Of a DNA stretch of 64,000 bases, positions 21,101-64,000 are shown piece by piece; position 1 is the stretch's first letter, and the number at the start of each line of letters is the position of its first letter. Both the position numbers and the translations under genes were made by a program. This DNA comes from Eledone cirrhosa. Its lineage: Eukaryota. The notes below the pieces were generated by a model that was not told the DNA's origin, made no database searches, and saw only the letters and a list, made by a program, of their open reading frames with translations. The DNA is taken from contig OZ024741.1 of assembly GCA_964016885.1 (NCBI GenBank), forward strand, positions 395,808,001-395,872,000, in the 5' to 3' direction.

Positions 21101-21716
21101 GAGCATTGCTGACTTGTGGAGTTATGTTGAACATTTGCTGTAATGTGTAGGACGGATCCGGTTATCGACTGAGTCCATTGTGCAGATAACCCCGCCGTCC
21201 TCCTTTAAGGAGGAGGAAGGGCAGGCAGTTTTCATCTGCCTGGTAGCCATGGCGAAAGAGATTGTATGGTGGACAAGGTTGAAAGGATTGAAGACAGACA
21301 CTTTCCTCTTCGGCGAATCCCTGATTAACTTTTTCAAATTTCACTTGAAGAGGAAAATCAGGGTGGAGAGACAAGTGCTGTCTTCTAGTAAGTTTGTTGA
21401 AAGGTGGGTAAAAGTGGTGAGTCTGATCCGAGTGAACGGGCCCGCTCTGGGTATGCGCCTGTAGACTGAGGAGTGGAAAACTGAGAGAGGGCGCTTGTCC
21501 TGGTGGTCAGGGTGGCTGTGGTATTTTGTGTGGTTTTCGCCACGAGTGACCATAGGAAGTTTCCCCCCTACTGGGGAATTTTATGTTGTTTGAATTTTTT
21601 TGATATTTCTATCTTCTTGTTATAACCAGCCAAAACACACTTTGTATCGTCCTGTACCATTCTGTGCCGTCTGTAATGTTTTTCTTCATGTTAGCCCTTG
21701 TGGCCAATAAAGAAAC

Positions 21717-21752
<36 letters not shown>

Positions 21753-23191
21753 GGGCGGTGGATTGGCAGTATCGGTAGAGAGACGGATGCCATACTTTGA
21801 CGCCTAGAGTTATGGCCCTTTCCATTCTGAGTTCAAATCCCGTTGAGGTCAACTTTGCCTTTAATCCTTACGGGGTCGATAAAATAAAGTACCAGTAATG
21901 CAATGGGATAATTGCTGACCTTGTGCCAAAAGTAGAAACAATTATTATTATTATAAGTTGGAACGGCTCCTCTTCAAATTCTTGTGGGAAGGACAAGTTC
22001 CGTTGGTGAGGCAGTAATCTGCTGCCAGCACCTCCTACGCGGAGGGCTGGGCATGCCGTGGCTAATGATGCGCAGACATGCGCTGAGGCTGCGACATCTC
22101 CAGATATTCTGCCTAAACGGTGAACAGGTGTGGTCGCCGTTTATCAGACGGGCCTTTCCGCAGCTCGTTTCTTTGACTGAGCTGCAGTCCTGGGTCAAGA
22201 AGAGACCGAGACTGGGTGACTGCCACCTGGAATGTTGCCAGGCACTCACTGCCCTCTACCAAGCGGGCAATGCGATCAGTGGAACTTCCACTCTCGAGTT
22301 CTATAGAGAATTAGTGGTGGGCAAGTGCAATGATGCACTCGGAGAAGTTTTGGGCCTCGACGAAGTCGAACTGACCAGTTTGTACCGGAGGACTTTTGAG
22401 CCGGGGACGATGGAAAATTTCCAGAAATCCCTCGTTTGGCAGTGCTACCGGGGTGCACTGCCGGTTCGGGATAAACTCTACAGGCACGGAAGTGCTGTCA
22501 GACGGACCTGCCCAAGATACGCACAGAGCGACAAAACCGTTCTGCACGCACTTGTCCAATGACCGTGCATTACTGACTTGTGGAGTTATGTCGAACAGCT
22601 ACTGTCGCGTGTGGAACGAATCCGGCTATCGGCTGAGTCCATAGTGAAGATCGACCCACGGCCTTCCTTAGGTCAGGAAGAGCAGGCAATTTTCCTCTGT
22701 CTGGTGGCCGTTGCGAAAGAGGTTATATGGTGGACCAGATTAAAAGGACTGAAGACAGACACTTTTCTCTTCGGCCAATCCCTCATCAACTTCTACAAGT
22801 TTCACCTGGAAAAGAAGGTGAGGGTGGAGAGAGAAGTGCTGCCCCCCAGTACATTTGCTAAAAGGTGGATGAATGTGGCGAGAATGGCCCGTGTAAATAG
22901 GCCTACTCTGACCATGCATCTATAGGCTAGCTAACTTGAGGAGATGGGTGCTCTCCCTGGGTGCCCTAGAAGCGCAGGGTGGTTCAGGATTGGTGGGGTC
23001 CCGAGTCACCCCTGGGTCGTCCACCCCCTATAGGGGAATTTATTTTGTTATATTTATGCATAGTTTATTTTATATTTTTTATATCTTCATTGTTAAATTA
23101 GTCTTGCCATTGTGCACTTTTACTCGATCTTTTACTGACCCTGTCTTTGTATTGTCCCCTACATGTCGGCCCTTGTGGCTAATAAATGAAA

Positions 23192-23241
<50 letters not shown>

Positions 23242-26043: not shown

Positions 26044-28233
26044 TATTAAGGGCGGTCGATTGGCAGTATCAGTAGAGGGTCGGATGTCATGCTTTGACGC
26101 ATAGAGTTGCGACCATTGCTATTCTGAGTTCAAATCCCGCCGAGGTTCATTTTGCCCTTCATCCTTACATGGTCGATAAAATAAAGTACCAGTAATGCCC
26201 TGGATAATTGCTGGCCTTGTGCCAAAAGTAGAAACAATTATTATTATTATTATTATTTGCTTCTTGCTGCCCACCATGTGTTTTCATCGCGTCAGAAAGT
26301 TTCGAGCAAATTGTTGCTTGCGTGGCCATTTAGAGTTTCGTTGAACTATATTGCTCATTTTAATGTGCAGCCATTTATAACTGCAACAAGCCTGTCACTC
26401 AAATAAATTTAGCTTGTGGGGCCTTGGGGAATAGATATGTCTGGTGTATTTAGTCACGTTCTAAGCTTCAACAATGCTAAAGTCAAATTTGTATTTCTAT
26501 TTGTGTTCCAGTTGAAAAAGACACCCGGTTTAATTTCTCTAACACCTGCCATTCGAACTAAAAAATTGAAAATTGTTCCCCAAGACTGGGAAAAAGTTTC
26601 TCTGAAAATTGACGTAATTGGATGTAGTAAGTAGAGATTTAAATAATGTCAAATATACTAGGTACACATTTGAATAGTGTCATATATAGTAAATACAATT
26701 TATTATAATGATATATGAAGTTAATATACATTTAAATAATGCCACATATAATATATAAACATTTATATAATGTAATATATAAATAAACATTTAAATAATG
26801 TCAAATATACTTAGTATACGTTTGAATGTTGTCAAATAGAGTAAATACAAAGTATGATAATGAAATATGAAGTTAGTATACATTATAATAATGTCAAATA
26901 TAATACATAAACATTTATATAATGTAAGATAGAATAAATAAACATTTATATAATGTGAGATAGAATAAACATTTATCTAATGTGAGTTAGAATATGTAAA
27001 CATTTATATAATGTAAGATAGAATAAATAAACATTTATGTAATGTGAGATATAATAAACATTTATATAATGTGAGATATAATAAGTAAACATTTATATAA
27101 TGTGAGATATAATAAATAAACATTTATATAATTAAGATAGAATAAATAATCATTTATGTAATGTAAGATATAATAAATAAACATTTATATAATGTAAGAT
27201 ATAATAAGTAAACATTTATATAATGTAAGATATAATAAGTAAACATTTATATAATGTGAGATATAATAAACATTTCCATAGTGTGAGATAGAATAAATAA
27301 ACATTTCTATAATGTGAGATATAATAAATAAACATTTCTATAATGTGAGATATAATAAGTAAACATTTATTAATGTGAGATAGAATAAATAAACATTTAT
27401 ATAATAAGTAAACATTTATATAATGTGAGATATAATAAATAAACATTTATATAATGTAAGATAGAATAAATAAACATTTATATAATGTGAGATGGGATAA
27501 GTAAACATTTATATAATGTAAGATATAATAAACATTTATATAATATGAGATAGAATAAGTAAACATTTATATAATGTGAGATAGAATAAATAAACATTTA
27601 TATAATGTAAGATAGAATAATTAAACATGTATATAATGTGAGATATAATAAGTAAACATTTATGTAATGTGAGATAGAATAAGTTAACATCTGTATAATA
27701 TCAGATATAGTAAGCAAACATTTACATAATGTGTTATATATATTGTAGTCAGAACACATTAGTGTCGAATGTATTAAGTAAAGATTTACATGTCATTTTC
27801 TCAGTACACATTGAGAAAATGTCAAAGGGTGTAAAGAAGGAAAATTGTTGTTACTTGTGTCTGCGTTTATCCGTTAAATCGTATGTATGTATGTATATCG
27901 ATCGCGGTTAAATCACTGGGGGTGAAGGACTCCTAGCCGTTGTCAGGGCATTCTTCTAGGAGAAGGCACCTCAGGAAAAACTGGGATAACTCCAACATAA
28001 AGCCTATGGCTCAGTAGTTACCAATGATGTTCATCTTTTCTTCTTTTCGGGTTATAGCTACTGTCGCTCAGAGAGTGGGATTGGCTCAGTGCACAGTTTT
28101 TCCTCACTTTAAAAAAAATCTTCATGCACAGGCATTGCTCGATAGCATTAATTGATAATTATTAATAATGCAATGGCCATACTCAATAACGATGGGGCAG
28201 CCATTATCATATATGTATATATGTGCGTGTGTG

Positions 28234-28264
<31 letters not shown>

Positions 28265-31200
28265 GTGGGAGGAGTGTATATATATATGTGGGGGTATAAA
28301 TATATATATATGTGTGTGTGTGTATGTGTGTATGTATACATATGTGTGTGTGTATGTGTGTGTATGTGTGTGTGCGTGCACATACAGATTTCTTAGTATT
28401 TGTTTTGAACTATATTTAAACGAAATAATTTTCCAGATGCTTCTTACTGGGGAGAGTGGCGAAGCTGGAGCAACTGCTCATCAAACTGTCAAAACCAGAC
28501 GAGAAATAGAATTAGGTAAATTTTATTCTAATTCCATATCTGTGTCCATGCTTTTCTCACACTCTCTCTCGCTCTCTCTCTCACAGACTCTCTCTCTCTC
28601 TCTCACTCTCTCTCTCTCTCTCACTGACTCTCTCTCTCTCACTCTCACTCTCTCTCTCACTCTCTCACTCTCTCTCTCACTCTCTCTCTCACTCTCTCTC
28701 CTTCTCTCTCACACACACAGACTCTTTCTCACTCTCTCTCTCTCTCTCTCTCAAAATCTCTCTCACTTTCTGTCCTCTCTCTCTCTCACTCACTCACTCT
28801 CTCAATCTCAATCTCTATATATTTATCTCCCTCTCTCTCCCTCTTACTCCAACCTACTCTCCCCCCTCTCTCTATCTCTCCTTCACTCACTCTCGTTCTC
28901 TATCACTCTTTCAACAAGCTTGACTCCCGTGGCAATGGTTTAGTTTGTAGTGGTTCATAATACATTCACAAACCACCATAACCTTCTAGAATAGAAATTA
29001 GGAAATAAGTTTTAACCCTTTAGCATTTAAACCGGCCATATCCGGCTGGAATTCTCTCACGTCTTTCTATTCAAACCAGCTGTCACTGACCACTCATACT
29101 GATGTTAAGGTATTGTTCTCAAAATGAATAATATGAACATCTCATGAATTCGATATTTTATGAGATAATTATGTGAGGCAAAGTCTTTACCATGAAAATA
29201 CAATAGTATATATAGAGTAATGTAAATGTTATGTGAGATATTATGTGAGGTAAAGCCTTAACTGTGACAATACAATAGTATATATAGAGTAATGTAAATA
29301 TTATGTGAGGTAAAGCCTTAACTGTGACAATACAATAGTATATATAGAGTAATGTAAATGTTATGTGAGATATTATGTGAGGTAAAGCCTTAACTGTGAC
29401 AATACAATAGTATATATAGAGTAATGTAAATATTATGTGAGGTAAAGCCTTAACTGTGACAATACAATAGTATATATAGAGTAATGTAAATGTTATGTGA
29501 GATATTATGTGAGGTAAAGCCTTAACTGTGACAATACAATAGTATATATAGAGTAATGTAAATATTATGTGAGGTAAAGCCTTAACTGTGACAATACAAT
29601 AGTATATATAGAGTAATGTAAATGTTATGTGAGATATTATGTGAGGTAAAGCCTTTACTGTGAAAATACAATAGTATATATAGAGTAATGTAAATGTTAT
29701 GTGAGATATTATGTGAGGTAAAGCCTTAACTGTGACAATACAATAGTATATATAGAGTAATGTAAATATTATGTGAGGTAAAGCCTTAACTGTGACAATA
29801 CAATAGTATATATAGAGTAATGTAAATGTTATGTGAGATATTATGTGAGGTAAAGCCTTTACTGTGAAAATACAATAGTATATATAGAGTAATGTAAATG
29901 TTATGTGAGATATTATGTGAGGTAAAGCCTTAACTGTGACAATACAATAGTATATATAGAGTAATGTAAATGTTATGTGAGATATTATGTGAGGTAAAGC
30001 CTTTACTGTGAAAATACAATAGTATATATAGAGTAATGTAAATGTTATGTGAGATATTATGTGAGGCAAAGTCTTTACCATGAAAATACAATAGTATATA
30101 GAGAGTAATGTAAATGTTATGTGAGATATTATGTGAGGTAAAGCCTTTACGGTGACAATACAATAGTATATATAGAGTAATGTAAATGTTATGTGAGATA
30201 TTATGTGAGGTAAAGCCTTTACGGTGAAAATACAATAGTATATATAGAGTGGTTTCTTTATTTGCCACTAGGGCACAAAAGGTAGGGACAGATACAAGGG
30301 GGGAAGTTTACATATAATTAACGAGTACAAAAATATAACAATGAAATAACAACAACAAACGAAGTCCTCAATAGGGAGGGGGCATTAACATGGGTCGCAC
30401 ACACCCCGGAAAAAATGTGTAACCCTTCTCCTCAGGAGCACAAAGAGTAGGTGCTTCCCTCGTCTCCTCTTTTTCCTCTTCTTTCACCTACAGGCTGATA
30501 TAGAGAGAAGACCCATTCACTCTGGCCATTCTCCCTACTTTCACCCACCTTTCATAAAACTTGCTGGGGTAGAGCACCTCTCTCTCCATTCTGATCCTTC
30601 TTTTAAAATGGTATTTGAAAAAGGGGACCAGTTGTTGGCCGGAGAGAAAGGTGTCTGACCTCAGCCCTTTCAGCCTCGTCCACCATACAACTTCTTTAGC
30701 CATGGCTACCACACAGAGAAAAACCGCCTCTCCTTCGTTTTTGAAAGGGGGAGGCGGTTTGATCGTGACAATGGACTCGGTGGTCAACCGGATTGGTCCC
30801 ACCCTCGACAGTAGTCGTTCCACATAGCCCCACAGGTCAGCAATGCCTGGGCAGTGTACGAATGCGTGCGCAACGGTTTCGTCATCATGCACGCATCTCG
30901 GACAGATCTTATTCAAAAGATCTCTACCCAGGCTCCCATGCCTGTGGAGCTTGTCTCGAACGGGTAGAGCCCCTCGGTAGCACTGCCAAGCCAGGGACTT
31001 TTGGAAGTTGTCCATCGGTCCAGGGCCAAACGTCCTACCGAACAGACTGGCCAGTTCATCTTCCTCCATGCCTAGAGCTTCTCCGAGAGCATCGTCGCAC
31101 CTGCTGCGTACCAACCCTCTATAGAATGTCGACGTGGAGTCTCCACTGATTGCCGGGTCCGCTTTCCAGAGGGCCGTGAGCGCCTGGGCACATTCAATGT

Positions 31201-34200
31201 GCCAGTCGCCCACTTTTCTCGGTCTTTGCTTGACCCAGGATTGCAGCTCGGTGAGCGAGACGAGTCTGGGAAAGGCTCGCCTCACAAACGGGGCCCACAC
31301 CGGTTGACCGGTGAGGAATACCTGGAGGTGCCGTAGCCTTAATGCGTGTTTACGCATCTGTAGCCACGGCATCCCCAGCCCTCCTTTCGAAGGGTGTTGA
31401 CAGCAGATGGATCTCTTCACCAAAGGGGTCCGCTTGTTCCAAAGAAATTGGAACAGCGCGCACTCCATTTTGGCGAGTCTTTTCACTGGGCAAGGCACGA
31501 CGGTCAAGCGGTAGTAGATGACGGATGCTATATAAGTATTCGCCACCTCCGCTCGACCTTTCAGGGATAGTTTGCACTGGGCCCACTTCTGGGTGAGTGC
31601 AAACGCCCTGGCCGTTACCTCGTTCCAGTTTTTCTCCACCTGGAGGTCTGGTCCGAACCAGACCCCAAGCAGCTTCACCGGGCCCTCCGTCCAGCGTCCG
31701 ACGACGTCGTTGGAGGGCATCGGTTTGCCTCTCCATGTTCCGAGTTGCAAACCGACGGACTTGTCCCGGTTCAGCTTGGCTCCTGTAAACCTTTCATATT
31801 CCTCCAGTAAGGTGCCGATCTCACCGATTTGCGAGGTTTTCGACACCATTACTGTCACGTCATCGGCGTAGGCCGACGCCGCTTTCTGCAATCCCGGTTC
31901 CAAAGGGATGCCCTGCAACCGCTCCAACTTCCGCAGTAGTGGCTCAAGAGCCAGCACATACAGTAGGGAGGAGAGAGGGCATCCCTGTCGGATGGATCGC
32001 ATGATTTGGAACGGCTCCGAGAGGTGGCCGTTCACCTTGACCCTTGAGCAGACGTTGCTGCTGTGCATCGCAGCAATCCAACCCCTGAAAACGGGTCCGA
32101 AGCCTGCCGCCGCAAGCACCGCATCCAGGTAACGATGGTCAACCCTATCGAAAGCTTTAGATTGATCCAAGTTGATCAGGGCCCCACCAAAGCCGGGTTC
32201 ATTCCCTACCCTCTCTATGATGTATCGCATAAGGTGGAGATTGTCGTGAATGGACCTGGACGGGATTGCGCATGTCTGCGCTTCTCCCACCAGGTTTCCA
32301 ACGACAAGCGCCAACCTCTTCGCTAACACCTTGGCCAAAATCTTTAACTCTGTATTTAGCAGAGTTATGGGCCTGAAGTTACTTATGTCATCCCCCTTGT
32401 TCTCATCCTTCCTCACCAGGGAGCTACGCCCTTGGTCACAGAACTGGGAATTCTCCCGTTCTGCTGCCAGTTGCAGTAGACCGCTTCGAGGATATCGGAG
32501 AACAAGTCCGGCATCGCTACATATAGCTCGTATGGTAGACCATCGAGACCCGGGGATTTGCGTTTGCCGCATTGGTTCAGCGCCGCCCCTATCTCAGCAG
32601 CTGAAATCGTCCTTTCGCAGGACTTCGCCTCCGCGTCCGAGAGGCGCGGCAGACCGTCGAGGTATGGATTGAAATCCATAGTCTCACCCGGCGCGCCGCC
32701 CCTCTCGAACAGTCGTGCAAAGTGCCGCTGAAAGGCCGCACACATCTGCCCAGGTTCAAGGATCACACGCCCATCCTGGTCCTTCAAAGACCGAATCGTG
32801 GACTTCTTCCCACTTTTTGCCTCTGTCACTCGGGCCCAGCTCACAGCTTTGGCTCCCTCATTACCCAGAGCACGTATTTTACTCCTGACAACGCAGCCTT
32901 CATGCTTCACCTCAAAGAACTGGTCTAAGGCCATTCTTGATGCCAGCACGCCGGCTACATTGCCACTCCTAATCGCCTCTTCTACTCTATCTACTAATTC
33001 CCTTTCCGTCTTGTTCCTATCCCTTGCTAATTCCTGACTAAAACCTATCGATTCTATTCTAATTGCTCTCTTAAGAGAGCTCCACCACCTGTTGTTGACA
33101 ATTGCCCCTGTCAAACTCTGCTTAACTAACGTGCTAATCCGTTTACTGTAAGCTTTGCTTCTCGGTAAGGACAAGTTCAGCTTCCAGTAACCGGGTCCCT
33201 GTCTATGGGTTCTATCAAGGTTGGCTATGCAGGTCACTAACTTGTGATCCGAATAGTCAACCATGAACATTTTTGGACAGCTAAATGTGTCCCTATCGTT
33301 CTCTCTAACTAGGACCCTATCTAGGTACGACCTAGATGTTCCACTGCGATTGGTCCACGTCCATAGTGGTACAGTCGGAAAATCTAGTCGATATCTATCG
33401 GCCAGGTCAAATCGGCCGATTAACCTTTTGAGGCTTTTACACCCCCCTCTATTGGCACATGCCCCTACATAGTCCCAACGTGCATCCAGGATACCATTCC
33501 AGTCCCCCACTAAAAGCAAGGAGCGGGACGTTCCCAGAAAAGTTTCCAGACGTTGGAAGTATTCCGGCCGCGCTGCCCAAAAAGGGGCGTACACAGCTAT
33601 TAGTCTAAGGGCTCCACTTTCACTACTGCCGACGTCTAAAACCACCAGTCGACCCTCCGGGTCCAGGTGCACCTTCTGTATGGCGAGGCCCAGGTGTTTT
33701 CGCAGCAGAACAACAACTCCACCCCCACCCCCGGTTGACAGAGAGATGCGAAGATCTCAAAGTCGTCGAAGAGGGGCGCCAGTTGGTGCTCGCTGCTGAT
33801 CCTGGACTCGCAAATAGCCATTACATCCATTCTATGCGACCTGAGATCGTTTAAAAGTTTGCCTTGTTTCCAAGACAGTCCCAGGCCACGTACATTCAGA
33901 CACCCAACTCTTATATCAGCCATGTTGGTTAAAAGAGGAAGGACCTACCTGTTCGGCTCCTGGGGAGCAGGTTGCACAATATCCATGGGCGTATTGGAGG
34001 GGTTGTTTGGTGGGGTGTTGTTCTGTGGTGGAGTGGGGGTGTTTGGTGAGGTGTGGGTGGGGAAACGTTTCAAGAGGACGCGGTTATAGGGTCGAGTACA
34101 TGTTTTCCCCACGTCCTCAGGAAAGTTCCCTCTTAGTTTTGCATAGGTGTCCATTGGGAGTCTTATCATTTTTAAATGCGGTTTGTTGGCCGCGCTTGCA

Positions 34201-36463
34201 AAGAATTGCCCTTCAGTTTCCACCGAAGGGTCTTTGTGTATTGTTTTTACTAGTTCTTTGTTCTTTGTGTTAATGTATGTATACTGTTTTATTTGTGTTG
34301 TGTTTGTTTGTTGTTCTTGTGTGTGCTTACGTTTTGTTGTATGTGTTATGTTTTGGGGTGGGGCGGATTTTGTTTGTTCTGTTTGTTTTGTTTTTGTTGG
34401 TGGTTGTGTGTTTGTTTCGTTTATGTTCGAGTGGTGCTTTCTTTTTTTCCTTTTTACAGGTTGGAAGGGTTCCCTCTCTTCGTCACTAGGTGCCGTTTCC
34501 GCTGGGTCCTCGTCCGTGCTGTCGGGTAGTGGTGTGTTTTGGGGTTTTGTTGTATTTGTGTGTGTTTTGGGAGTTGTTTTGGGTGGGGCCGTGTCTTGTG
34601 TTATTTTTCCCTGTTGTTTTTGTTGTTGTTGTGGTGGTGGAGGTGGTGGTGGTGGTGGTGGTGGCGGTGGTGGTGTGTGGGGTGTAGGCAAAAGAGCCTT
34701 TTTTTTTGTCAATTGAGGACAAGCAGCCCTTAGATGACCCCTGCTTGAACAGTAGTAACATATGGGCCTCCTACCCTCGGCTGAAATATATATAAATGTT
34801 TCTCCATCGAGGGACACCCTCTGTGGTATTCTAGCTATTCGTTCTGGTCTCATTTGGACCAGAACCTCCATGCTCAAACCGCCGAAAACGTCTGTGGTGA
34901 CTTCTCCTACTGAGAGGATTCCGTCCTCGTCTTCTAAAAATCCTGTTAGTACCCAGGAAATGCATGCATTTGGCCGGATTCCGGAGACCCTTATCTTCTG
35001 CGTTCTTTTCCCTAAATATGTGGGGAAAAATGTATGTAGCTTGGAAACAATTGGTGCCACAGAGTATTTCCTGGCCGTCAATTGATCCTTCATTAGGACC
35101 GTTATATTCCCATAGAGTGGCCCTTTTTGTATGAACGATATATCACTCCACACATTTTTTAGGACCAGCTCAATCTCTTTTTGGGATAATTGAGTTGGTT
35201 TCCTTGTTATGTTGGAAATTGTTCTGAAAGATATCGTTCTTAGCGTCGTGTCTCTTTTGATTTCTTGTGGGGAGGTGATTGTGAAGTCTCCTCCTTCTTT
35301 GAAAGTTACATACTGTTTCGCTTCCTTCATCTTTTCTCTCAGAGTTGTAATGTCCAGTTGCTTGCAGGTTTGTGTTTTCCGGACCGCCTGTGCAAAGGAG
35401 GCACCAGTAGTGGGTTCGCTTTGTTTGGTGTTATCGTTATTTTTTCCTTGGTTGGTGTTGTGACTATTGCTGTTATTGTCGTTGTTGTTTTTGTCTGCGT
35501 TTATGTGACTTTCTGGGTTTTCACCCATTTTTACAAATTTTTCTTTTAATTCCGTGTTCCATGTTTCTTTTGCAGAAGTCAGGAGGGAAGACTTAGAGCC
35601 TTGTGCTTCTAGCTTCTCTGTATCACCTTTCTTAGGGGGCGTGGCTTTCACGTTAGGATGAGATGTGAAAATTCCGTCCATTTCTATTAGTTTGCCGTAA
35701 TAAGTTTTTAACTGGAAAATTCGCCCCAAAAAGGGGCGAAAATAAATAAACTCAAAGTTTGACGACCAAGGCAAGGGGTTAACGTATATTACAGTATAAA
35801 AAAATTAATCAAAACTCACTTTTTGAGTAAGTAAATCCGACTCGGTAGCCGAGCTTGTTCACACACGTCAACACACGTCTCTCGTATACGAGATGTTATG
35901 TGAGATATTATGTGAGGTAAAGCCTTTACTGTGAAAATACAATAGTATATATAGAGTAATGTAAATGTTATGTGAGATATTATGTGAGGTAAAGCCTTAA
36001 CTGTGATAATACAATAGTATATATAGAGTAATGTAAATGTTATGTGAGATATTATGTGAGGTAAAGCCTTAACTGTGACAATACAATAGTATATATAGAG
36101 TAATGTAAATGTTATGTGAGATATTATGTGAGGTAAAGCCTTAACTGTGACAATACAATAGTATATATAGAGTAATGTAAATGTTATGTGAGATATTATG
36201 TGAGGAAAAGCCTTTACTGTGAAAATACAATAGTATATATAGAGTAATGTAAATGTTATGTGAGATATTATGTGAGGCAAAGTCTTTACCATGAAAATAC
36301 AATAGTATATATAGAGTAATGTAAATGTTATGTGAGATATTATGTGAGGTAAAGCCTTTACGGTGACAATACAATAGTATATATAGAGTAATGTAAATGT
36401 TAAAGGGTTAAACTGTTAATGACAGCAATAGTTGACTAGTACTACTATACTACTACTACTACT

Positions 36464-36619: not shown

Positions 36620-38657
36620 TGTTTCTACTTTTGGCACAAGGCCAGCAATTACGCAATGCATTACTGGTACTTTATTTTATCGACCCCGGAAGGATGAAAG
36701 GCAAAGTTAAATAATAATAATAATAATAATAATACTAGTAAAGTATAAATAGTACGAGAACAGTGACTACCAACATCAATTACCATAACAACACAACAGT
36801 AACTTTATCCCACTGGCTAATACTGTCATATCTCAGTTGTTAAAGTTGATAATATTCCACATATATCTTTGGTAAACTTTCTTATAATTGAATTATTTTA
36901 ATAGTTTCCATTGTGTGGGTGTCAAATACAGACTAAATACATTGAGTGTCTGTCAAATACAGACTAAATACATTGAGTGTCTGTCAAATAGAGACTAAAT
37001 AACATTGAGTGTCTGTCAAATACAGACTAAATACATTGAGTGTCTGTCAAATAGAGACTAAATAACATTGAGTGTCTGTCAAATACAGACTAAATACATT
37101 GAGTGTCTGTCAAATACAGATTAAATAACATTGAGTGTCTGTCAAATACAGACTAAATACATTGAGTGAGTGTCAAATACAGATTAAATAACATTGAGTG
37201 TCTGTCAAATACAGACTAAATAACATTGAGTGTCTGTCAAATACAGATTAAATAACATTGAGTGTCTGTCAAATACAGACTAAATACATTGAGTGAGTGT
37301 CAAATACAGACTAAATACATTGAGTGTCTGTCAAATACAGACTAAATACATTGAGTGAGTGTCAAATACAGATTAAATAACATTGAGTGTCTGTCAAATA
37401 GAGACTAAATAACATTGAGTGTCTGTCAAATACAGACTAAATAACATTGAGTGTCTGTCAAATACAGACTAAATACATTGAGTGAGTGTCAAATACAGAC
37501 TAAATACATTGAGTGTCTGTCAAATACAGACTAAATAACATTGAGTGTCTGTCAAATGCAGATTAAATAACACTGAGTGTCTGTCAAATACAGACTAAAT
37601 AACACTGAGTGTCAGTCAAATACAGACTAAATAACATTGAGTGTCTGTCAATTACAGACTAGATAACATTGAGTGTCTGTCAAATACAGACTAAATAACA
37701 TTGAGTGAGTGTCAAATACAGACTAAATAACATTGAGTGTCTGTCAAATACAGACTAGATAACATTGAGTGTCTGTCAAATACAGACTAGATAACATTGA
37801 GTGTCTGTCAAATACAGACTAAATAACATTGAGTGTCTGTCAAATACAGACTAGATAACATTGAGTGTCTGTCAATTACAGACTAGATAACATTGAGTGT
37901 CTGTCAAATACAGACTAAATAACATTGAGTGTCTGTCAAATACAGACTAAATAACATTGAGTGAGTGTCAAATACAGACTAAATAACATTGAGTGTCTGT
38001 CAAATACAGACTAAATAACATTGAGTGTCTGTCAAATACAGACTAAATAACATTGAGTGTCTGTCAAATACAGACTAAATAACATTGAGTGTCTGTGATA
38101 CAAGGGCGAAAGTAAATTCATGCTAAGTACCGAAAATACAAAATTATATAAACCTTTATATGTGAAGAGATGTGTAAGATGTTTGTAAGATCGAGAAAAC
38201 CAAACGAGTATCAACGTTCATCTATAGATACCTCGTTGTCTAACGACAGCAACAGTTGACTGATAAAATGACAAGTCAGTCAATCATTGGTGGCCTCCCC
38301 CACAGCCCCGGCAGACAGAATGGAGAAGGTGTTTCCTCGGGGGACGGCAAGAGAGACGATGGAAAAGCCATTCCAATTCGCGAGGCTCACACCTGAGGCT
38401 GGCCAACTCAGCGCCTTTGGTGGTGAGTAGGGAGGTAACCCTAGGGCCGAGGACACCGGAAGTCTCCACTGCTTGCTTGACTGTGGAACCAAATAAAACA
38501 ATGTTCTGGTGATCTAAATTGATGCCTCAAAATAAAAATACTACTACTACTACTACAACTACTACTACTGCTACTACTACTATTGCTACTACTACTACTG
38601 TTACTACTACAACTACTACTACTACCACTACTACTACTACTACCACTACTACTACCA

Positions 38658-41568: not shown

Positions 41569-44500
41569 CATACATACATACATACATACATACATACATA
41601 CAATGGCGACCGTTGTGGTCAATGTCCGATAATGGGACGTGTGTAATTACGGCTTACATGAAGGCAACATACCATATATTGGAAAAAGTTGAGCTACATT
41701 ACGCGGTAAGATTACATACAATAATTCTACATAAGTGTTTGAACTGTAAGTGTGTTGTAAAACACCTATTTATATGAACGATACATACACTTATGATATA
41801 TGAACGATCCATACACATATGTTATATGAACGATACATACACTTATGTTATATGAACGATACATACACTTTAACATATAAATGCAACGTTGTTATATTAC
41901 ATTTATAAAGAAATATACAAGTAACGTTTTCGATTCAGAAACAAAAACATAAGTGTTTGAACTGTGAATATGTTGTGAATAAGTTGTAGAACACCTATTT
42001 ATATTAATGATACATAAACTTTAACATATAAATACAGCGTTGTTATATTATATGACATTCATAAAGAAATATACTAAGTAACGGTTCTTTTGATTCTCGA
42101 TTCAAACGATTCAAGAACAACGTTTAAAACACAGTTGTAGAATTAATAACTAACTGAAAAGAAATATTACCCAACTTTAAATTTGATTCTGACAGAACTT
42201 TGTCGAAACTTTTAAAGAAGATCATCGACTATTTTGAAAAATAAATACGAAATATTAGCGAATAGACGAACTCATCATGGCAAAACGTACAAGTCTGCTT
42301 CGACCAAATCGCAACTACAACAGTGGAGCTACGAGCTTAACAAAGAATTATATGAAGCATACAAACAATCTGAACCCCAAAAGTTCGGTTTTATGCAAAG
42401 GCTAAAAACTTTATGGAACTCCAAACACCCAGAATTAAACTTTTCTCCAAAGCATTTAAATGAATAGGCAAAACGTATCATTAGATGTAAATTGATACAT
42501 CTAACGGAATTAAGTGATACTACAAATACAGCCCTTGTAGACAACCACCCCACCTCCACTGACAGACAAAGAGAATGGCCAGCTAAATCTAACAGTGAAC
42601 AGCTCACCAACAATTTTGCTGAAATCGATCCCACTTCCACTGAAGAACAGCGAGAATGGTCAGCTAACTCTAGTAGTAATTGTCACCACATCAACAACGA
42701 GGCTGAAATTCATGACTCTACTGTACAAACAGAACACCAAAAACTTGTGGGCACCTTACAAGTGATATGGGACGATATGTTTCAAGAGATACACAGCCTT
42801 AATGTGAGTGACAGACCATACAACACCAGAATCAGTAAAGAACCCACTAAATTGGAATTGGAAGCGGTGAACGAAATAGCTGGCAATTATCTGAAGGCTA
42901 TACGATCTAAAGGTGTAGAAACGACATTTGAAACGCTTAATGTTTTGTTATATGTTTCAGCTGTCACATTGCTATCATATAACACACATCTAAAACCACG
43001 CAATCAAGATACAAACAAAAAGCCTGAACCAGCGTGGATGCGAAATTTAAAAAGCAAAATTTTGTCCCTGAGACGAAGTATTTCACACATCGCAGTCGTT
43101 ATGAAATGCAACATAGAGAGCAACTTCACACGACACCAGGAAGACCTAAAAAAAGTTAGAGAGACGATTTGGAAATACAAAATTTAAAACTTTGAACTCC
43201 AAATTACACCAGTTGAAACAACAACTCACAACTACAACAGAAAGACTCAAATATAAGTCAACAGCACATAAACGACAAGTGCTAAATAGATTGTTTGCCA
43301 GAGATCCTAAATCAGTTTATCGCAGCTTCGGTGGCAAAAGCTCAATCCCTGTAAATGACACCCCTTCAAAAGAACAGGTTGAGAGCTACTGGAGATCTGT
43401 ATAGGAAACGGATGACGGATTCAACAGACAAACTAATTGGCTAAAAAACTGGAACAGGACTACTGCCAACATGTCCAGACAAAACAATATGACATAGATG
43501 GGTCAATACTGGAAACAGCTCTACAGAAAATGTCGAATAGGAAATCACCAGGCCCAGACCTCATTACAGGATACTCGTTGAAAAATTTCACTTTCTATCG
43601 GCAAGATCTCATACGGCTGTTTACAGAAACCATTAAAGGCACATAAGAACTGCCCAGATGGTTATCAACTGCCACTACTCTCCTCATTCCCAAAAATAGC
43701 CAAACCACCCTTGCTAAAAATGACCGCCCAATAGCCTGCCAAAACATCATGTATAAATTATATACTGTGTGCCTTAACCTGTTCTTACAGGATCACTGTG
43801 CTACCAACAACATCATAACACCTGAACAAGCTGGTGGAAAGAGGGAGGTGTGGGGTTTCATAGATCACCTACTAACTAATAAAATGATTCAGGAAAAAAC
43901 AACAAAGAATCGCAGAAACATAACTGTGGTGTGGCGGGACTATCAAAAAGCATTTGATAGTGTACCTCATGGGTGGATTATTAAGGCTTTACAGTTAGCC
44001 AAAGTCCCACAACCATTGGTAGCTGCTGTTGAACGCCTGACCAAGAACTGGTACACCAATTTGATCCTTAGAGGTGAGAAGGAGCAAGTTAAGACTGATA
44101 AGATACATTACCAGAAGGGCATCTTTCAGGGTGATAGCTTGTCAGTGCTACTCTTCGTTCTCTCACTAAATCCACTATCTTACCTACTCAGGAAACAAGG
44201 TGGACAAAGAAGTGGGTCCAGAAGTATCTCCCATCTTTTCTTTGTTGATGACCTGAAGCTGTATGGGCCAAATATCAATGACATCAAGAAACAATTGGAC
44301 CTCATTACACAATTTTCAACAGACATCAAAATGAAATTTGGTGAGTCCAAGTTTGCATATTTGGCAGTAAAACGTGGAAGAGCTGTGCCCTCCTCTAGAA
44401 ATCTAGAGATGAACGACCTGACAATACAACCTCTACAGTCAGGTGACAACTACAGATATCTTGGACAGGATGAGAATGTCAGATATGATGGACCCATAAA

Positions 44501-54815: not shown

Positions 54816-57255
54816 TGTGAGTATTTCTTATTTTATTGTCATACATTATGAAAGTTGAGCATCAGAAACATTTAGAGAGCGCTTAACTCTCAAACATTTA
54901 CATTACTCTCTATATACTATTGTATTTTCACAGTAAAGGCTTTACCTCACATAATATCTCATAACATTTACATTACTCTATATATACTATTGTATTTTCA
55001 CAGTAAAGGCTTTACCTCACATAATATCTCATAACATTTACATTACTCTATATATACTATTGTATTTTCACAGTAAAGGCTTTACCTCACATAATATCTC
55101 ATAACATTTACATTACTCTATATATACTATTGTATTTTCACAGTAAAGGCTTTACCTCACATAATATCTCATAACATTTACATTACTCTATATATACTAT
55201 TGTATTTTCACAGTAAAGGCTTTACCTCACATAATATCTCATAACATTTACATTACTCTATATATACTATTGTATTTTCACAGTAAAGGCTTTACCTCAC
55301 ATAATATCTCATAACATTTACATTACTCTATATATACTATTGTTTTTTCACAGTAAAGGCTTTACCTCACATATTATCTCATAACATTTACATTACTCTA
55401 TATATACTATTGTATTTTCACAGTAAAGGCTTTACCTCACTTAATATCTCATAACATTTACATTACTCTATATATACTATTGTATTTTCACAGTAAAGGC
55501 TTTACCTCACATAATATCTCATAACATTTACATTACTCTATATATACTATTGTATTTTCACAGTAAAGGCTTTACCTCACATAATATCTCATAACATTAA
55601 CATTACTCTATATATACTATTGTATTTTCACAGTAAAGGCTTTACCTCACATAATATCTCACATAACATTTACATTACTCTATATATACTATTGTATTTT
55701 CACAGTAAAGGCTTTACCTCACATAATATCTCATAACATTTACATTACTCTATATATACTATTGTATTTTCACAGTAAAGGCTTTACCTCACATAATATC
55801 TCATAACATTTACATTACTCTATATATACTATTGTATTTTCACAGTAAAGGCTTTACCTCACATAATATCTCATAACATTTACATTACTCTATATATACT
55901 ATTGTATTTTCACAGTAAAGGCTTTACCTCACATAATATCTCATAATATTTGCATTACTCTATATATACTATTGTATTTTCACAGTAAAGGCTTTACCTC
56001 ACATAATATCTCACATAACATTTACATTACTCTATATATACTATTGTATTTTCACAGTAAAGGCTTTACCTCACATAATATCTCATGACATTTACATTAC
56101 TCTATATATACTATTGTATTTTCACAGTAAAGGCTTTACCTCACATAATATCTCATAACATTTACATTACTCTATATATACTATTGTATTTTCACAGTAA
56201 AGGCTTTACCTCACATAATATCTCATAACATTTACATTACTCTATATATACTATTGTATTTTCACAGTAAAGGCTTTACCTCACATAATATCTCATAACA
56301 TTTACATTACTCTATATATACTATTGTATTTTCACAGTAAAGGCTTTACCTCACATAATATCTCATAACATTTACATTACTCTATATATACTATTGTATT
56401 TTCACAGTAAAGGTTTTACCTCACATAATTTCTCATAACATTTACATTACTCTATATATACTATTGTATTTTCACAGTTAAGGCTTTACCTCACATAATA
56501 CCTCACATAACATTTACATTACTCTATATATACTATTGTATTTTCACAGTAAAGGCTTTACCTCACATAATATCTCACATAACATTTACATTACTCTATA
56601 TATACTATTGTATTTTCACAGTAAAGGCTTTACCTCACATAATATCTCACATACCATTTACATTACTCTATATATACTATTGTATTTTCACAGTAAAGAC
56701 TTTACCTCACATAAAATCTCACATAACATTTACATGACTCTATATATACTATTGTATTTTCACAGTAAAGGCTTTACCTCACATAATATCTCACATACCA
56801 TTTACATTACTCTATATATACTATTGTATTTTCACAGTAAAGGCTTTACCTCACATAATATCTCACATACCATTTACATTACTCTATATATGCTATTGTA
56901 TTTTCACAGTAAAGGCTTTACCTCACATAATATCTCGCATCACATTTACATTACTCTATACATACTATTGTATTTTCACAGTAAAGGCTTTACCTCACAT
57001 AATATCTCACATAACATTTACATTACTCTATATATACTATTGTATTTTCACAGTAAAGGCTTTAACTCACATAATATCTCACATACCATTTACATTACTC
57101 TATATATACTATTGTATTTTCACAGTAAAGGCTTTACCTCACATAATATCTCACATAACATTTACATTACTCTATATATACTATTGTATTTTCAGAGTAA
57201 AGGCTTTACCTCACAAAATATTTCACATAACATTTACATTACTCTATATATACTA

Positions 57256-57723
57256 CTAACAGTGGTACCCGGCGTTGCACGGGATAAGGTATTTTGGAAC
57301 GCGGGCCGCCAACAGACCTAATCGTGGAATAACTGCATGCCTGGACAATATGTAAAGAAAATAAACCGAAAAAAGCCCCAAAAAGCTGAAAAAAAGAAGT
57401 TTTTCACCTAATGCGGGCCCTAGGCCATAAAGAGGTGGATTTTCTTTGCTCACGGTATGAAGAAGAGACTGACTAATACATAGTTTCAATTTCAAGGAAA
57501 TTGGTCTGAGGTAACGCCTCAAAGAAACCCTAAAAAACTTTTAAAACGCAGTTTTTCGCCTAATGCAGGTACTAGGGGATCAAAAAGTTGAATTTTTTAT
57601 GTGCATAACTTTCCCTAAGTAATACACATGTAAAGTTTGACAAAAATCGGTTGGGTACTTCTCGAGTTTTAGGGATTCAAACTCACACACGCACACAGAC
57701 ATCCTCAGTTTTATATATATAGA
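57256..57723 (-). mobile_element. Non-autonomous Helitron-like element (468 bp)
   Basis: Minus strand starts TC, ends with hairpin CCCGTGCAACGCCGGG then TTAG; inserted between A and T of the repeat (tatatactA|Ttgtattt) with no TSD. Confidence 0.75.
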
Positions 57724-57845
57724 TTGTATTTTCACAGTAAAGGCTTTACCTCACATAATATCTCACATAACATTTATATTACTCTATATATACTATTGTA
57801 TTTTCACAGTAAAGGTTTTACCTCACATAATATCTCACATAACAT

Positions 57846-60800
57846 CTCGTATACGAGAGATGTGTGTTGACGTGTGTGAACAAGCTCGGCTACCGAGTCG
57901 GATTTACTTACTCAAAAGTGAGTTTTGATTAATTTTTTATACTGTAGTATACGTTAACCCCTTGCCTTGGTCGTCAAACTTTGAGTTTATTTATCTTCGC
58001 CCCTTTTTGGGGCGAATTTTCCAGTTAAAAACTTATTACGGCAAACTAATAGAAATGGACAGAATTTTCACATCTCATCCTAACGTGAAAGCCACGCCCC
58101 CTAAGAAAGGTGATACAGAGAAGCTAGAAGCACAAGGCTCTAAGTCTTCCCTCCTCACTTCTGCAAAAGAAACATGGAACACGGAATTAAAAGAAAAATT
58201 TGTAAAAATGGGTGAAAACCCAGAAAGTCACATAAACGCAGACAAAAACAACAACGACAATAACAACAATAGTCACAACACCAACCAAGGAAAAAATAAC
58301 GATAACACCAAACAAAGCGAACCCACTACTGGTGCCTCCTTTGCACAGGCGGTCCGGAAAACACAAACCTGCAAGCAACTGGACATTACAACTCTGAGAG
58401 AAAAGATGAAGGAAGTGAAACAGTATGTAACTTTCAAAGAAGGAGGAGACTTCACAATCACCTCCCCACAAGAAATCAAAAGAGACACGACGCTAAGAAC
58501 GATATCTTTCAGAACAATTTCCAACATAACAAGGAAACCAACTCAATTATCCCAAAAAGAGATTGAGCTGGTCCTAAAAAATGTGTGGAGTGATATATCG
58601 TTCATACAAAAAGGGCCACTCTATGGGAATATAACGGTCCTAATGAAGGATCAATTGACGGCCAGGAAATACTCTGTGGCGCCAATTGTTTCTAAGCTAC
58701 ATACATTTTTCCCCACATATTTAGGGAAAAAGAACGCAGAAAATAAGGGTCTCCGGAATCCGTCCAAATGCATGCATTTCCTGGGTACTAACAGGATTTT
58801 TAGAAGACGAGGACGGAATCCTCTCAGTAGGAGAAGTCACCACAGACGTTTTCGGCGGTTTGAGCGTGGAGGTTCTGGTCCAAATGATACCAGAACGAAT
58901 AGCTAGAATACCACAGAGGGTGTCCCTCGATGGAGAAACATTTATATATATTTCAGCCGAGGGTAGGAGGCCCATATGTTACTACTGTTCAAGCAGGGGT
59001 CATCTAAGGGCTGCTTGTCCTCAATTGACAAAAAAAAGGCTCTTTTGCCTACACCCCACACACCACCACCGCCACCACCACCACCACCACCTCCACGACC
59101 ACCACCACAACAACAACAAAAACAACACGGAAAAATAACACAAGACACGGCCCCACCCAAAACAACTCCCAAAACACACACAAATACAACAAAACCCCAA
59201 AATACACCACTACCCGACAGCACGGACGAGGACCCAGCGGAAACGGCACCTAGTGACGAAGAGGGGGAACCCTTCCAACCTGTAAAAAGGAAAAAAAGAA
59301 AGCACCACTCGAACATAAACGAAACAAACACACAACCACCAACAAAAACAAAACAAACAGAACAAACAAAATCCGCCCCACCCCAAAACATAACACATAC
59401 AACAAAACGTAAGCACACACAAGAACAACAAACAAACACAACACAAATAAAACAGTATACATACATTAACACAAAGAACAAAGAACTAGTAAAAACAATA
59501 CACAAAGACCCTTCGGTGGAAACTGAAGGGCAATTCTTTGCAAGCGCGGCCAACAAACCGCATTTAAAAATGATAAGACTCCCAATGGACACCTATGCAA
59601 AACTAAGAGGGAACTTTCCTGAGGACGTGGGGAAAACATGTACTCGACCCTATAACCGCGTCCTCTTGAAACGTTTCCCCACCCACACCTCACCAAACAC
59701 CCCCACTCCACCACAGAACAACACCCCACCAAACAACCCCTCCAATACGCCCATGGATATTGTGCAACCTGCTCCTCAGGAGCCGAACAGGTAGGTCCTT
59801 CCTCTTTTAACCAACATGGCTGATATAAGAGTTGGGTGTCTGAATGTACGTGGCCTGGGACTGTCTTGGAAACAAGGCAAACTTTTAAACGATCTCAGGT
59901 CGCATAGAATGGATGTAATGGCTATTTGCGAGTCCAGGATCAGCAGCGAGCACCAACTGGCGCCCCTCTTCGACGACTTTGAGATCTTCGCATCTCTCTG
60001 TCAACCGGGGGTGGGGTGGAGTTGTCGTTCTGCTGCGAAAACACCTGGGCCTCGCCATACAGAAGGTGCACCTGGACCCGGAGGGTCGACTGGTGGTTTT
60101 AGACGTCGGCAGTAGTGAAAGTGGAGCCCTTAGACTAATAGCTGTGTACGCCCCTTTTTGGGCAGCGCGGCCGGAATACTTCCAACGTCTGGAAACTTTT
60201 CTGGGAACGTCCCGCTCCTTGCTTTTAGTGGGGGACTGGAATGGTATCCTGGATGCACGTTGGGACTATGTAGGGGCATGTGCCAATAGAGGGGGGTGTA
60301 AAAGCCTCAAAAGGTTAATCGGCCGATTTGACCTGGCCCATAGATATCGACTAGATTTTCCGACTGTACCACTATGGACGTGGACCAATCGCAGTGGAAC
60401 ATCTAGGTCGTACCTAGATAGGGTCCTAGTTAGAGAGAACGATAGGGACACATTTAGCTGTCCAAAAATGTTCATGGTTGACTATTCGGATCACAAGTTA
60501 GTGACTTGCATAGCCAACCTTGATAGAACCCATAGACAGGGACCCGGTTACTGGAAGCTGAACTTGTCCTTACCGAGAAGCAAAGCTTACAGTAAACGGA
60601 TTAGCACGTTAGTTAAGCAGAGTTTAACAGTGGCAATTGTCAACAACAGGTGGTGGAGCTCTCTTAAGAGAGCAATTAGAATAGAATCGATAGGTTTTAG
60701 TCAGGAATTAGCAAGGGATAGGAACAAGACGGAAAGGGAATTAGTAGATAGAGTAGAAGAGGCGATTAGGAGTGGCAATGTAGCCGGCGTGCTGGCATCA

Positions 60801-63487
60801 AGAATGGCCTTAGACCAGTTCTTTGAGGTGAAGCATGAAGGCTGCGTTGTCAGGAGTAAAATACGTGCTCTGGGTAATGAGGGAGCCAAAGCTGTGAGCT
60901 GGGCCCGAGTGACAGAGGCAAAAAGTGGGAAGAAGTCCACGATTCGGTCTTTGAAGGACCAGGATGGGCGTGTGATCCTTGAACCTGGGCAGATGTGTGC
61001 GGCCTTTCAGCGGCACTTTGCACGACTGTTCGAGAGGGGCGGCGCGCCGGGTGAGACTATGGATTTCAATCCATACCTCGACGGTCTGCCGCGCCTCTCG
61101 GACGCGGAGGCGAAGTCCTGCGAAAGGACGATTTCAGCTGCTGAGATAGGGGCGGCGCTGAACCAATGCGGCAAACGCAAATCCCCGGGTCTCGATGGTC
61201 TACCATACGAGCTATATGTAGCGATGCCGGACTTGTTCTCCGATATCCTCGAAGCGGTCTACTGCAACTGGCAGCAGAACGGGAGAATTCCCAGTTCTGT
61301 GACCAAGGGCGTAGCTCCCTGGTGAGGAAGGATGAGAACAAGGGGGATGACATAAGTAACTTCAGGCCCATAACTCTGCTAAATACAGAGTTAAAGATTT
61401 TGGCCAAGGTGTTAGCGAAGAGGTTGGCGCTTGTCGTTGGAAACCTGGTGGGAGAAGCGCAGACATGCGCAATCCCGTCCAGGTCCATTCACGACAATCT
61501 CCACCTTATGCGATACATCATAGAGAGGGTAGGGAATGAACCCGGCTTTGGTGGGGCCCTGATCAACTTGGATCAATCTAAAGCTTTCGATAGGGTTGAC
61601 CATCGTTACCTGGATGCTGTGCTCGCGGCGGCAGGCTTCGGACCCGTTTTCAGGGGTTGGATTGCTGCGATGCACAGCAGCAACGTCTGCTCAAGGGTCA
61701 AGGTGAACGGCCACCTCTCGGAGCCGTTCCAAATCATGCGATCCATCCGACAGGGATGCCCTCTCTCCTCCCTACTGTATGTGCTGGCTCTTGAGCCACT
61801 ACTGCGGAAGTTGGAGCGGTTGCAGGGCATCCCTTTGGAACCGGGATTGCAGAAAGCGGCGTCGGCCTACGCCGATGACGTGACAGTAATGGTGTCGAAA
61901 ACCTCGCAAATCGGTGAGATCGGCACCTTACTGGAGGAATATGAAAGGTTTACAGGAGCCAAGCTGAACCGGGACAAGTCCGTCGGTTTGCAACTCGGAA
62001 CATGGAGAGGCAAACCGATGCCCTCCAACGACGTCGTCGGACGCTGGACGGAGGGCCCGGTGAAGCTGCTTGGGGTCTGGTTCGGACCAGACCTCCAGGT
62101 GGAGAAAAACTGGAACGAGGTAACGGCCAGGGTGTTTGCACTCACCCAGAAGTGGGCCCAGTGCAAACTATCCCTGAAAGGTCGAGCGGAGGTGGCGAAT
62201 ACTTATATAGCATCCGTCATCTACTACCGCTTGACCGTCGTGCCTTGCCCAGTGAAAAGACTCGCCAAAATGGAGTGGGCGCTGTTCCAATTTCTTTGGA
62301 ACAAGCGGACCCCTTTGGTGAGGAGATCCATCTGCTGTCAACACCCTTCGAAAGGAGGGCTGGGGACGCCATGGCTACAGATGCGTAAACACGCATTAAG
62401 GCTACGGCACCTCCAGGTATTCCTCACCGGTCAACCGGTGTGGGCCCCGTTTGTGAGGCGAGCCTTTCCCAGACTCGTCTCGCTCACCGAGCTGCAATCC
62501 TGGGTCAAGCAAAGACCGAGAAAAGTGGGCGACTGGCACATTGAATGTGCCCAGGCGCTCACGGCCCTCTGGAAAGCGGACCCGGCAATCAGTGGAGACT
62601 CCACCTCGACATTCTATAGAGGGTTAGTACGCAGCAGGTGCGACGATGCTCTCGGAGAAGCTCTAGGCATGGAGGAAGATGAACTGGCCAGTCTGTTCGG
62701 TAGAACGTTTGGCCCTGGACCGATGGACAACTTCCAAAAGTCCCTGGCTTGGCAGTGCTACCGAGGGGCTCTACCCGTTCGAGACAAGCTCCACAGGCAT
62801 GGGAGCCTGGGTAGAGATCCTTTGAATAAGATCTGTCCGAGATGCGTGCATGATGACTAAACCGTTGCGCACGCATTCGTACACTGCCCAGGCATTGCTG
62901 ACCTGTGGGGCTATGTGGAACGACTACTGTCGAGGGTGGGACCAATCCGGTTGACCACCGAGTCCATTGTCACGATCAAACCGCCTCCCCCTTTCAAAAA
63001 CGAAGGAGAGGCGGTTTTTCTGTGTGTGATAGCCATGGCTAAAGAAGTTGTATGGTGGACGAGGCTGAAAGGGCTGAGGTCAGACACCTTTCTCTCCGGC
63101 CAACAACTGGTCCCCTTTTTCAAATACCATTTTAAAAGAAGGATCAGAATGGAGAGAGAGGTGCTCTACCCCAGCAAGTTTTATGAAAGGTGGGTGAAAG
63201 TAGGGAGAATGGCCAGAGTGAATGGGTCTTCTCTCTATATCAGCCTGTAGGTGAAAGAAGAGGAAAAAGAGGAGACGAGGGAAGCACCTACTCTTTGTGC
63301 TCCTGAGGAGAAAGGTTGCACATTTTTTCCGGGGTGTGTGCGACCCATGTTAATGCCCCCTCCCTATTGAGGACTTCGTTTGTTGTTGTTATTTCATTGT
63401 TATATTTTTGTACTCGTTAATTATATGTAAACTTCCCCCCTTGTATCTGTCCCTACCTTTTGTGCCCTAGTGGCAAATAAAGAAACC
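57846..63487 (+). mobile_element. Full-length Tx1-clade non-LTR retrotransposon, copy 2 (5642 bp)
   Basis: Near-identical to copy 1. ORF1 ~58055-59794 with A-run frameshifts; ORF2 59816-63250 with frameshifts at ~60010 and ~61315 and a stop at 62858-62860. Confidence 0.93.
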
Positions 63488-63502
63488 ACTCTATATATAC
63501 TA

Positions 63503-63867
63503 CTAACAGTGGTACCCGGCGTTGCACGGATTAAGGTATTTTGGAACGCGGGCCGCCAACAGTCCTAATCGTGGGAAAACTGCATGCCTGGACAATATGT
63601 AAAGAAAATAAACCGAAAAAAGCCCAAAAAAGCTGAAAAAAGGAAGTTTTTCACCTAATGCGCGCCCTAGGCCATAAAAAGGTGGATTTTCTTTGCTCAC
63701 GGTATGAAGAAGAGACTGACTAATACATAGTTTCAATTTCAAGGAAATTGGTCTGAGGTAACGCCTCAAAAAACCCCTAAAAAACTGAAAAAACGCAGTT
63801 TTTCGCCTAATGCAGGTCCTAGGGGATCAAAAAGTTGAATTTTTTATGTGCATAACTTTCCCTAAGT
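63503..63867 (-). mobile_element. Second, 5'-truncated copy of the Helitron-like element
   Basis: Same ctaacagtggtacccggcgttgcacgg end at the same repeat position; several substitutions relative to 57256-57723. Confidence 0.75.
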
Positions 63868-64000
63868 TTTGTGGTATTTATTCCGGCTCTCTGATCTCTG
63901 AGTCTTTACCTCACATATCTCACATAACATTTACATGACTCTATATATACTATTGTATTTTCACAGTAAAGGCTTTACCTCACATAATATCTCACATAAC

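Follow-up and report, generated by a model that had tools for sequence, protein, structure and literature searches.

Does a retrotransposon choose one base of a repeated target, or has an insertion simply been copied together with its surroundings? This question is raised by a 64,000-nucleotide window of the octopod Eledone cirrhosa (GCA_964016885.1, contig OZ024741.1, positions 395,808,001 to 395,872,000 of the forward strand), in which two nearly identical long interspersed nuclear elements (LINEs), probably of Tx1 type, lie in minisatellite arrays belonging to a TTAA-flanked miniature inverted-repeat transposable element (MITE). The feature itself is real. The best reading of the data was that a Tx1-type LINE inserts in a target-specific manner into the repeat inside this MITE, and the system probably works like Tx1L and its target Tx1D, slightly more probably still when a variant with mobilization in trans is counted in. 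The whole proposal, in which an octopod Tx1-type LINE with an apurinic/apyrimidinic endonuclease (APE) inserts at a fixed base of the MITE unit and the two copies arrived separately and were later converted, is in our judgement reasonably likely, by a small measure less so than its core.

Copy A occupies 30251..35892 on the minus strand and copy B 57846..63487 on the plus strand; both are full length (5,642 bp). An alignment of the two shows 40 substitutions and 8 gap columns, a divergence of 0.7%, with several of the indels at homopolymer positions. An earlier note on this DNA had reported two full-length copies with identical junctions, and this was borne out: a 24-nt string across the 5′ junction and a 25-nt string across the 3′ junction each had just two matches in the window, one at each copy. 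When the arrays were split into units, the 72-bp unit hosting the LINE lacked its last 7 nt at both loci, and the orientation of the LINE relative to the unit was the same. The seven letters were present at empty sites in public contigs, in agreement with the earlier observation that seven target bases are missing, and the reported lack of an (ATT)n tail and single orientation also held for both copies. The probability that a random second copy would land in an array and also agree in phase and orientation was about 5.5e-4, given that arrays occupy 8% of the window once the LINEs are set aside. It had been suggested that the loss could equally be a duplication of a unit minus 7 nt. The formal equivalence stands, but the two 65-mers flanking copy A mismatch at one variant position and the downstream 65-mer at copy B is broken after 15 nt by a Helitron-like insert. 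A 65-bp duplication in place of the 7-bp loss is disfavoured, since this insert 15 nt from the 3′ end of copy B argues for a 7-nt truncation.

A perfect 12-bp palindrome (57846-57857 and 35881-35892) opens the LINE and is followed by two more hairpins; the 5′ end with the upstream flank gave a folding z of −2.7. In 57700-58200 no self-cleaving ribozyme of Rfam scored close to the threshold (best E 0.18). A 5′ end derived from the target as an inverted copy was also considered, but was dropped after a shuffle test in which 849 and 420 of 2,000 shuffles were equally good.

We then examined the arrays that host the two copies. The hallmark of a piggyBac-type MITE is TTAA on both sides with short terminal inverted repeats (TIRs) starting CCC, and locus 1 has both. 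One end (29012..29029) consists of TTAA and a 14-bp TIR starting CCC, the other (36394..36411) of a 14-bp TIR, overlapping the first repeat unit, and TTAA (36408-36411); the TIRs match at 13 of 14 positions. Between them lie a non-repeated MITE body (29030..29160; like the ends, without strand), 15.8 copies of a 72/60-bp unit on the 3′ side of copy A (29161..30250, minus strand) and a 7-unit array on its 5′ side (35893..36393, minus strand), whose last unit lacks the 7 nt at the junction. Locus 2 opens with TTAA and a degenerate TIR, which departs from the same-side TIR of locus 1 at 3 of 14 bases, and its array of 33.5 units, mostly of a 70-bp variant, spans 54883..57255 (plus strand). An insert inside a unit follows (57256..57723, minus strand; TC...TTAG ends, between A and T, without duplication), which we take to be Helitron-like from its terminal features, and then the stretch of units 5′ of copy B, ending in one without the 7 nt (57724..57845, plus strand). 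The 3′ side of copy B retains only 15 nt of the unit (63488..63502, plus strand) before a second, truncated copy of this insert, at the same unit base as the first (63503..63869, minus strand; 15 of 366 bases differ). The other end of locus 2 lies beyond the window; the earlier picture of an array bounded by TTAA and 14-bp TIRs is thus complete at locus 1 and reduced to one degenerate end in the window at locus 2.

The spacing from MITE end to LINE was 7 units at locus 1 and about 35 at locus 2, and the first common variant of the unit was column 23 (40 T, 13 G and 1 A among 54 window units). Many public contigs and reads joined the unit straight to the same TIR end, indicating that the target MITE is far commoner than the LINE. 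No piggyBac transposase was seen in a profile scan covering nine translated stretches of the window. Within the 72-bp unit both Helitron-like inserts occupy one base position, 15 nt away from the LINE site; 11 AT steps per unit were available, and an old duplication is likelier than two separate hits. A 605-bp duplication around copy B, invoked for the repeated insert, was rejected, as the inserts diverge by 4% and the LINEs by 0.7%.

The encoded proteins are given here for copy A. ORF1 (33945..35681, minus strand) is open and encodes 578 amino acids, with a CCHC knuckle and a proline-rich C-terminal half. Its translation holds a CX2CX4HX4C motif, although the Pfam zf-CCHC match (E 0.007) was weaker than the cut-off; the Atlas neighbours were zf-CCHC (0.92) and ZCCHC3 RNA-binding domains (0.89), the latter a lead only, and a sequence search gave no ORF1 homologues. 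ORF2 (30488..33923, minus strand) encodes an APE endonuclease, a reverse transcriptase (RT) and a zf-RVT domain (PF03372, PF00078 and PF13966), interrupted by frameshifts near 33727, in a G run, and near 32421. The full set of APE catalytic motifs was present in its translation, which scored 110 bits against human L1 ORF2p and 48-62 bits against R2; the endonuclease had no match among PDB sequences. With an N-terminal APE domain, an RT, a C-terminal zinc finger and no long terminal repeats (LTRs), the element has the make-up of an APE-type non-LTR retrotransposon of the L1 group. Its nearest named relatives were cephalopod proteins, from Argonauta hians (64%) and Acanthosepion pharaonis. These relatives, together with the types of repeat present, also point to an octopod as host. 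In an RT tree of 30 proteins hand-picked from 243 plus two window sequences, which held no Tx1L or L1 row, it fell in a cephalopod clade with support of 100/99 and an unresolved base. RT identity to the fish pol-like proteins BAC82605, BAC82609 and BAC82613, which we presume to represent families of the Kibi/Koshi/Keno/Mutsu type, was only 34-36%, and the element stood apart from them in this clade. Tx1-clade ORF1 proteins carry a region like an RNA-recognition motif and a CCHC knuckle, and membership of the Tx1 clade is likely. The specificity loop of the endonuclease has 9 residues, as in human L1, compared with 11 in Tx1L, which was absent from the relatedness comparison, and 9-13 in the cephalopod-clade relatives checked; the loop shapes target choice (PMC1950540).

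The findings above were extended by examining public sequencing data. The stretch was represented in eight runs from four studies, five of which had at least half of its words; three of these five and one restriction-site-associated DNA run, together X1, X4, X5 and X10, were placed on copy A, while X2, X3 and X8, with 0.23-0.31 of the words, were excluded from the results. Depth of the family-specific contigs was 1,959-2,481 in X4 (8-20 in the thinnest contigs listed), 37-57 in X5 and 6-12 in X1, and in X10 36,954 molecules, of 12.5 million records, started at one GCATGC site. These values suggest a copy number on the scale of a hundred, though only roughly, since depth is not copy number. We found an X5 contig (depth 36.9) that ran 12 nt past the 3′ junction into the unit, and an X1 contig (depth 12.2, from a run labelled as another organism) that ran 22 nt past it and ended right before unit column 23. 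A stop at the first variant column is as expected if several loci have a common junction. Another X1 contig (depth 10.2) spanned the 5′ junction and included the 12-bp palindrome, as in copies A and B. The element is thus a multicopy family whose 3′ end enters the same unit in the runs of two organisms, the target flank agreeing in both window copies and in three junction-spanning contigs. No loose end was seen at the LINE 3′ end among the rows listed; contigs drop rare variants, so unique flanks could go unseen. Exact patterns of the LINE 3′ end or the repeat unit had 0 matches in metagenome, viral and prokaryote contigs, and a protein-profile scan revealed no relatives in metagenome, viral or prokaryote collections.

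The earlier note had called the insertion 'seen twice'. Two copies are indeed there, but they are not clean independent replicates, because they share a rare frameshift in ORF2 (32419..32423, minus strand) that lies outside a homopolymer and is absent from most copies in the public runs. Both are also frameshifted in the G run of the endonuclease region, and copy B has both ORFs broken and an extra stop in ORF2. The earlier note had passed over these breaks. At the shared frameshift one more base was present in 2,648 of 2,697 depth in X4, in 53 of 53 in X5 and in 468 of 531 reads in X10; X1 gave 102 of 102, at ten times the depth of the family and so probably from relatives. ORF2 is mostly open among the copies of the family. 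Comparison of copy A with the reads yielded at least 40 substitutions, of which, among the rows listed, 7 were private to A, 32 common to A and B and 1 in neither. Most of the 32 shared rows had 10-100 times the depth of the family, pointing to related families, and were set aside. Three sites (34129, 32806 and 32423) were common to A and B and not in the dominant form, judged by family depth or by agreement of nearly all depth; three others (34788, 34263 and 33298) looked polymorphic within the family. Four of the five shared sites tested were non-synonymous.

Of 35 coding differences between A and B, 18 were synonymous, against an expected fraction of 0.29, or 10 sites (p 0.004; p 0.024 under the strictest model, with all changes taken as transitions), and the excess was present in transitions alone (12/22, p 0.037) and in transversions alone (6/13, p 0.017). 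Such a bias suggests that coding function was under selection once the lineages had separated, unlike what a duplicated dead copy would show. The differences were also unevenly spread, with 16, 7, 2 and 14 in successive quarters (p 0.005) and one identical run of 987 bp (p 0.02) that holds both the shared frameshift and 32806; in windows of 1,000-2,000 bp the unevenness was not significant (p 0.07-0.44). Furthermore, the host arrays differ in unit type, unit number, TIR and Helitron-like inserts far more than the LINEs do. The simplest account would be that different active lineages gave rise to the two insertions and that gene conversion then acted between these neighbours, which lie 22 kb apart; ectopic conversion of the middle tract would explain the frameshift common to A and B.

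Several observations weigh against target-specific insertion with separate arrivals. Depth was flat from 5′ to 3′ in X4, X5 and X1, and 5′-truncated copies seem few. The earlier note had looked to many independently truncated copies ending at the same base for support, and such support was not obtained from these runs; a joint from 31007 to 30253 in X10 (117 reads, one start) resembles a truncated copy directly behind the 3′ end of another, but is weak. The shared frameshift and at least two shared substitutions missing from the dominant form occur in copies only 22 kb apart. The synonymous excess comes from 35 sites and thins out when split (ORF2 alone 10/19, p 0.02-0.07; ORF1 alone 8/16, p 0.06-0.14), and the middle dip may partly reflect purifying selection (synonymous sites alone, p 0.054). 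All this leaves room for a history in which one or a few founder insertions in the repeat were multiplied at the DNA level, by transposition of a LINE-bearing MITE, gene conversion or unequal exchange, with no strict LINE target. Such copying predicts the same flat depth, with nearly all copies full length, and the 5′ junction, palindrome included, is identical in A, B and the X1 contig. The shared lesions, their mostly non-synonymous character and the proximity of A and B would follow too. We nonetheless regard this explanation as unlikely, though it deserves to be taken seriously, because the A/B differences are biased towards synonymous sites, the MITE copies diverge much more than the LINEs, and ORF2 is open in the dominant form. 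Only 15 nt of target remain 3′ of copy B before an older insert diverged by 4% from its twin, little room for homology-based copying and enough for an endonuclease site. Two simple forms were judged separately: if A and B arose by plain duplication of a dead copy, their differences should be neutral and even along the length, and this form was downgraded after the synonymous-bias test, and transposition of a single composite MITE was rejected, the arrays and TIRs being too different.

A target-specific family might also have produced A and B in trans from a single frameshifted source, without later gene conversion. The common frameshift would then be inherited, 63 of the 531 X10 reads lack the extra base, and Tx1 machinery serves SINEU in trans (PMC4494074). 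A dead source, however, gives no reason for synonymous-biased ORF2 differences (10/19) or for their uneven spread, and leaves the proximity of the two copies unexplained, so that we consider this variant very improbable. Slighter still is the chance that one insertion was assembled twice or that random insertions happened to coincide. The window is rich in repeats and several A/B indels lie in homopolymers, but the 40 substitutions, the differing flanking arrays with no unique flank in common, the junction-spanning contigs in runs of two other organisms or samples and the low probability of coincidence computed above all speak against it.

Target-specific insertion could proceed as follows. 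Target-primed reverse transcription is an established mechanism, on which these steps are modelled, and it would here take place at one fixed base of the 72-bp unit in an abundant TTAA MITE. The ORF2 endonuclease would nick the bottom strand between ...CATT and ACTC... at the 3′ junction, the 3′ end of the RNA would prime at this nick, and the top strand would be opened 7 nt upstream, giving the target-site truncation. An equally compatible variant is that RNA with repeat-derived flanks anneals to the target and recreates the founder's junction, which would also account for why a tail is missing and truncated copies seem scarce; target-specific integration can be reinforced when element and target are transcribed together (PMC4494074). 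Copies A and B probably came from two slightly different active source lineages, landed in two older, different arrays and decayed, and later exchanged their middle tract by ectopic gene conversion. The MITE arrays would offer an abundant, self-renewing and nearly neutral landing site. The LINE-on-MITE system of the earlier note, with a dispersed MITE satellite as safe target, is partly supported. It survives as the best reading, and the public runs add support from elsewhere, while the apparent scarcity of truncated copies tells against it.

The kind of system is already known, and the comparison with Tx1L and Tx1D made earlier was apt. In Xenopus laevis, the Tx1-clade LINE Tx1L has a specific insertion site in members of Tx1D, a non-autonomous piggyBac family, and its APE endonuclease is sequence-specific (PMC4494074, PMC1950540). 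Here the host is a cephalopod, the target is a 72-bp minisatellite and the insertion truncates the target by 7 nt. Tx1L makes a target duplication. According to PMC4494074, crocodilian Tx1-Mar, Tx1-9_AMi, Tx1-8_Crp and Tx1-4_AMi prefer DNA transposons (Mariner-N4_AMi, Harbinger) or LTR elements, other families prefer microsatellites, and satellites are among the known targets; the SINEU elements likely mobilised by crocodilian Tx1 show both target duplications and truncations. These families differ from ours in target class and phylum, and there 5′-truncated copies, the usual demonstration of independence, showed that insertions were separate; the same paper calls a family target-specific when >20% of its copies have a single type of sequence at their flanks. 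Kibi and Koshi (microsatellites), Keno (U2 small nuclear RNA) and Mutsu (5S ribosomal DNA) are likewise sequence-specific two-ORF LINEs with multicopy targets (PMC4494074 and PMC5340908; on Mutsu, Kibi and Koshi see also PMC2684134), their targets being microsatellites or RNA genes. In Octopus vulgaris, L1-Tx1 is listed as expanded and recently active, with 13 families and 421 young near-full-length insertions (PMC13282606, Table 1), and L1-Tx1 in octopus is also listed in PMC8967140. Neither the accessible portions of PMC13282606, in which the supplement was also searched, nor those of PMC8967140 mention target specificity or nesting of these elements. An entry of 'PiggyBac 3,666,023 bp' in Table 1 of PMC13282606, which would imply 7.7-kb elements resembling the LINE-bearing MITE seen here, exceeds the table's TIR total and is probably a typo; it was not used. 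No report of a cephalopod target-specific Tx1 was found in the literature searched, with subscription journals, Repbase and Dfam outside its scope, so that a prior entry is possible.

The window also contains two 5′-truncated relatives of the LINE (20757-21749 and about 21958-23241) with 62-64% amino-acid identity and a conserved 3′ end, both ending in (ATT)n. In the latter, the start lies within an ATT run that closes a SINE-like (short interspersed nuclear element) repeat, suggesting microsatellite targeting by this relative. The junction of our element (CATT then ACT) is similar to TATT then ATT, and a shift of target from (ATT)n in the history of this lineage is plausible on these motifs. 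One might go further and propose that a cephalopod Tx1 lineage moved from (ATT)n to a piggyBac-MITE minisatellite, converging on Tx1L/Tx1D, that RNA target flanks annealing at both ends make insertion precise and almost exclusively full length, and that the result is a young, hundred-copy, site-specific family on a self-amplifying landing pad; as a whole this is a tentative and rather doubtful extension. If target specificity is confirmed, Tx1 specificity for repeats of DNA transposons would extend to cephalopods; this would be only a modest surprise, the general strategy being on record from frogs and crocodilians. The family, young and with open reading frames, would form a natural pair with its close (ATT)n-ending relatives of the same genome for studying change of APE target, and a LINE that inserts site-specifically and mostly at full length into so abundant and neutral a repeat would offer a candidate tool for octopus transgenesis.

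Other features of the window were recorded as well. Tandem repeats are abundant in the region, with minisatellites at 36909-38096 (32-bp x37), 26637-27733 (31-bp x36) and 47529-47848 (29-bp x11), and a 1,329-bp unit fills 1-11540 in about 8.7 head-to-tail copies with identity >99.5%. A distant LINE clade is represented at 43749-45336 by fragments of RT and zf-RVT. An 892-bp inverted repeat (50406-51297 and 52265-53156, 99.8% identity) overlaps a 358-amino-acid ORF (51101-52177, minus strand) without Pfam match and is possibly a young fold-back or DNA transposon. Finally, 53774-54815 contains about 700 bp of (CAC)n followed by a cysteine-rich coding stretch, which terminates immediately in front of the array of locus 2 and, at a guess, is possibly the last exon of a mucin-like gene.

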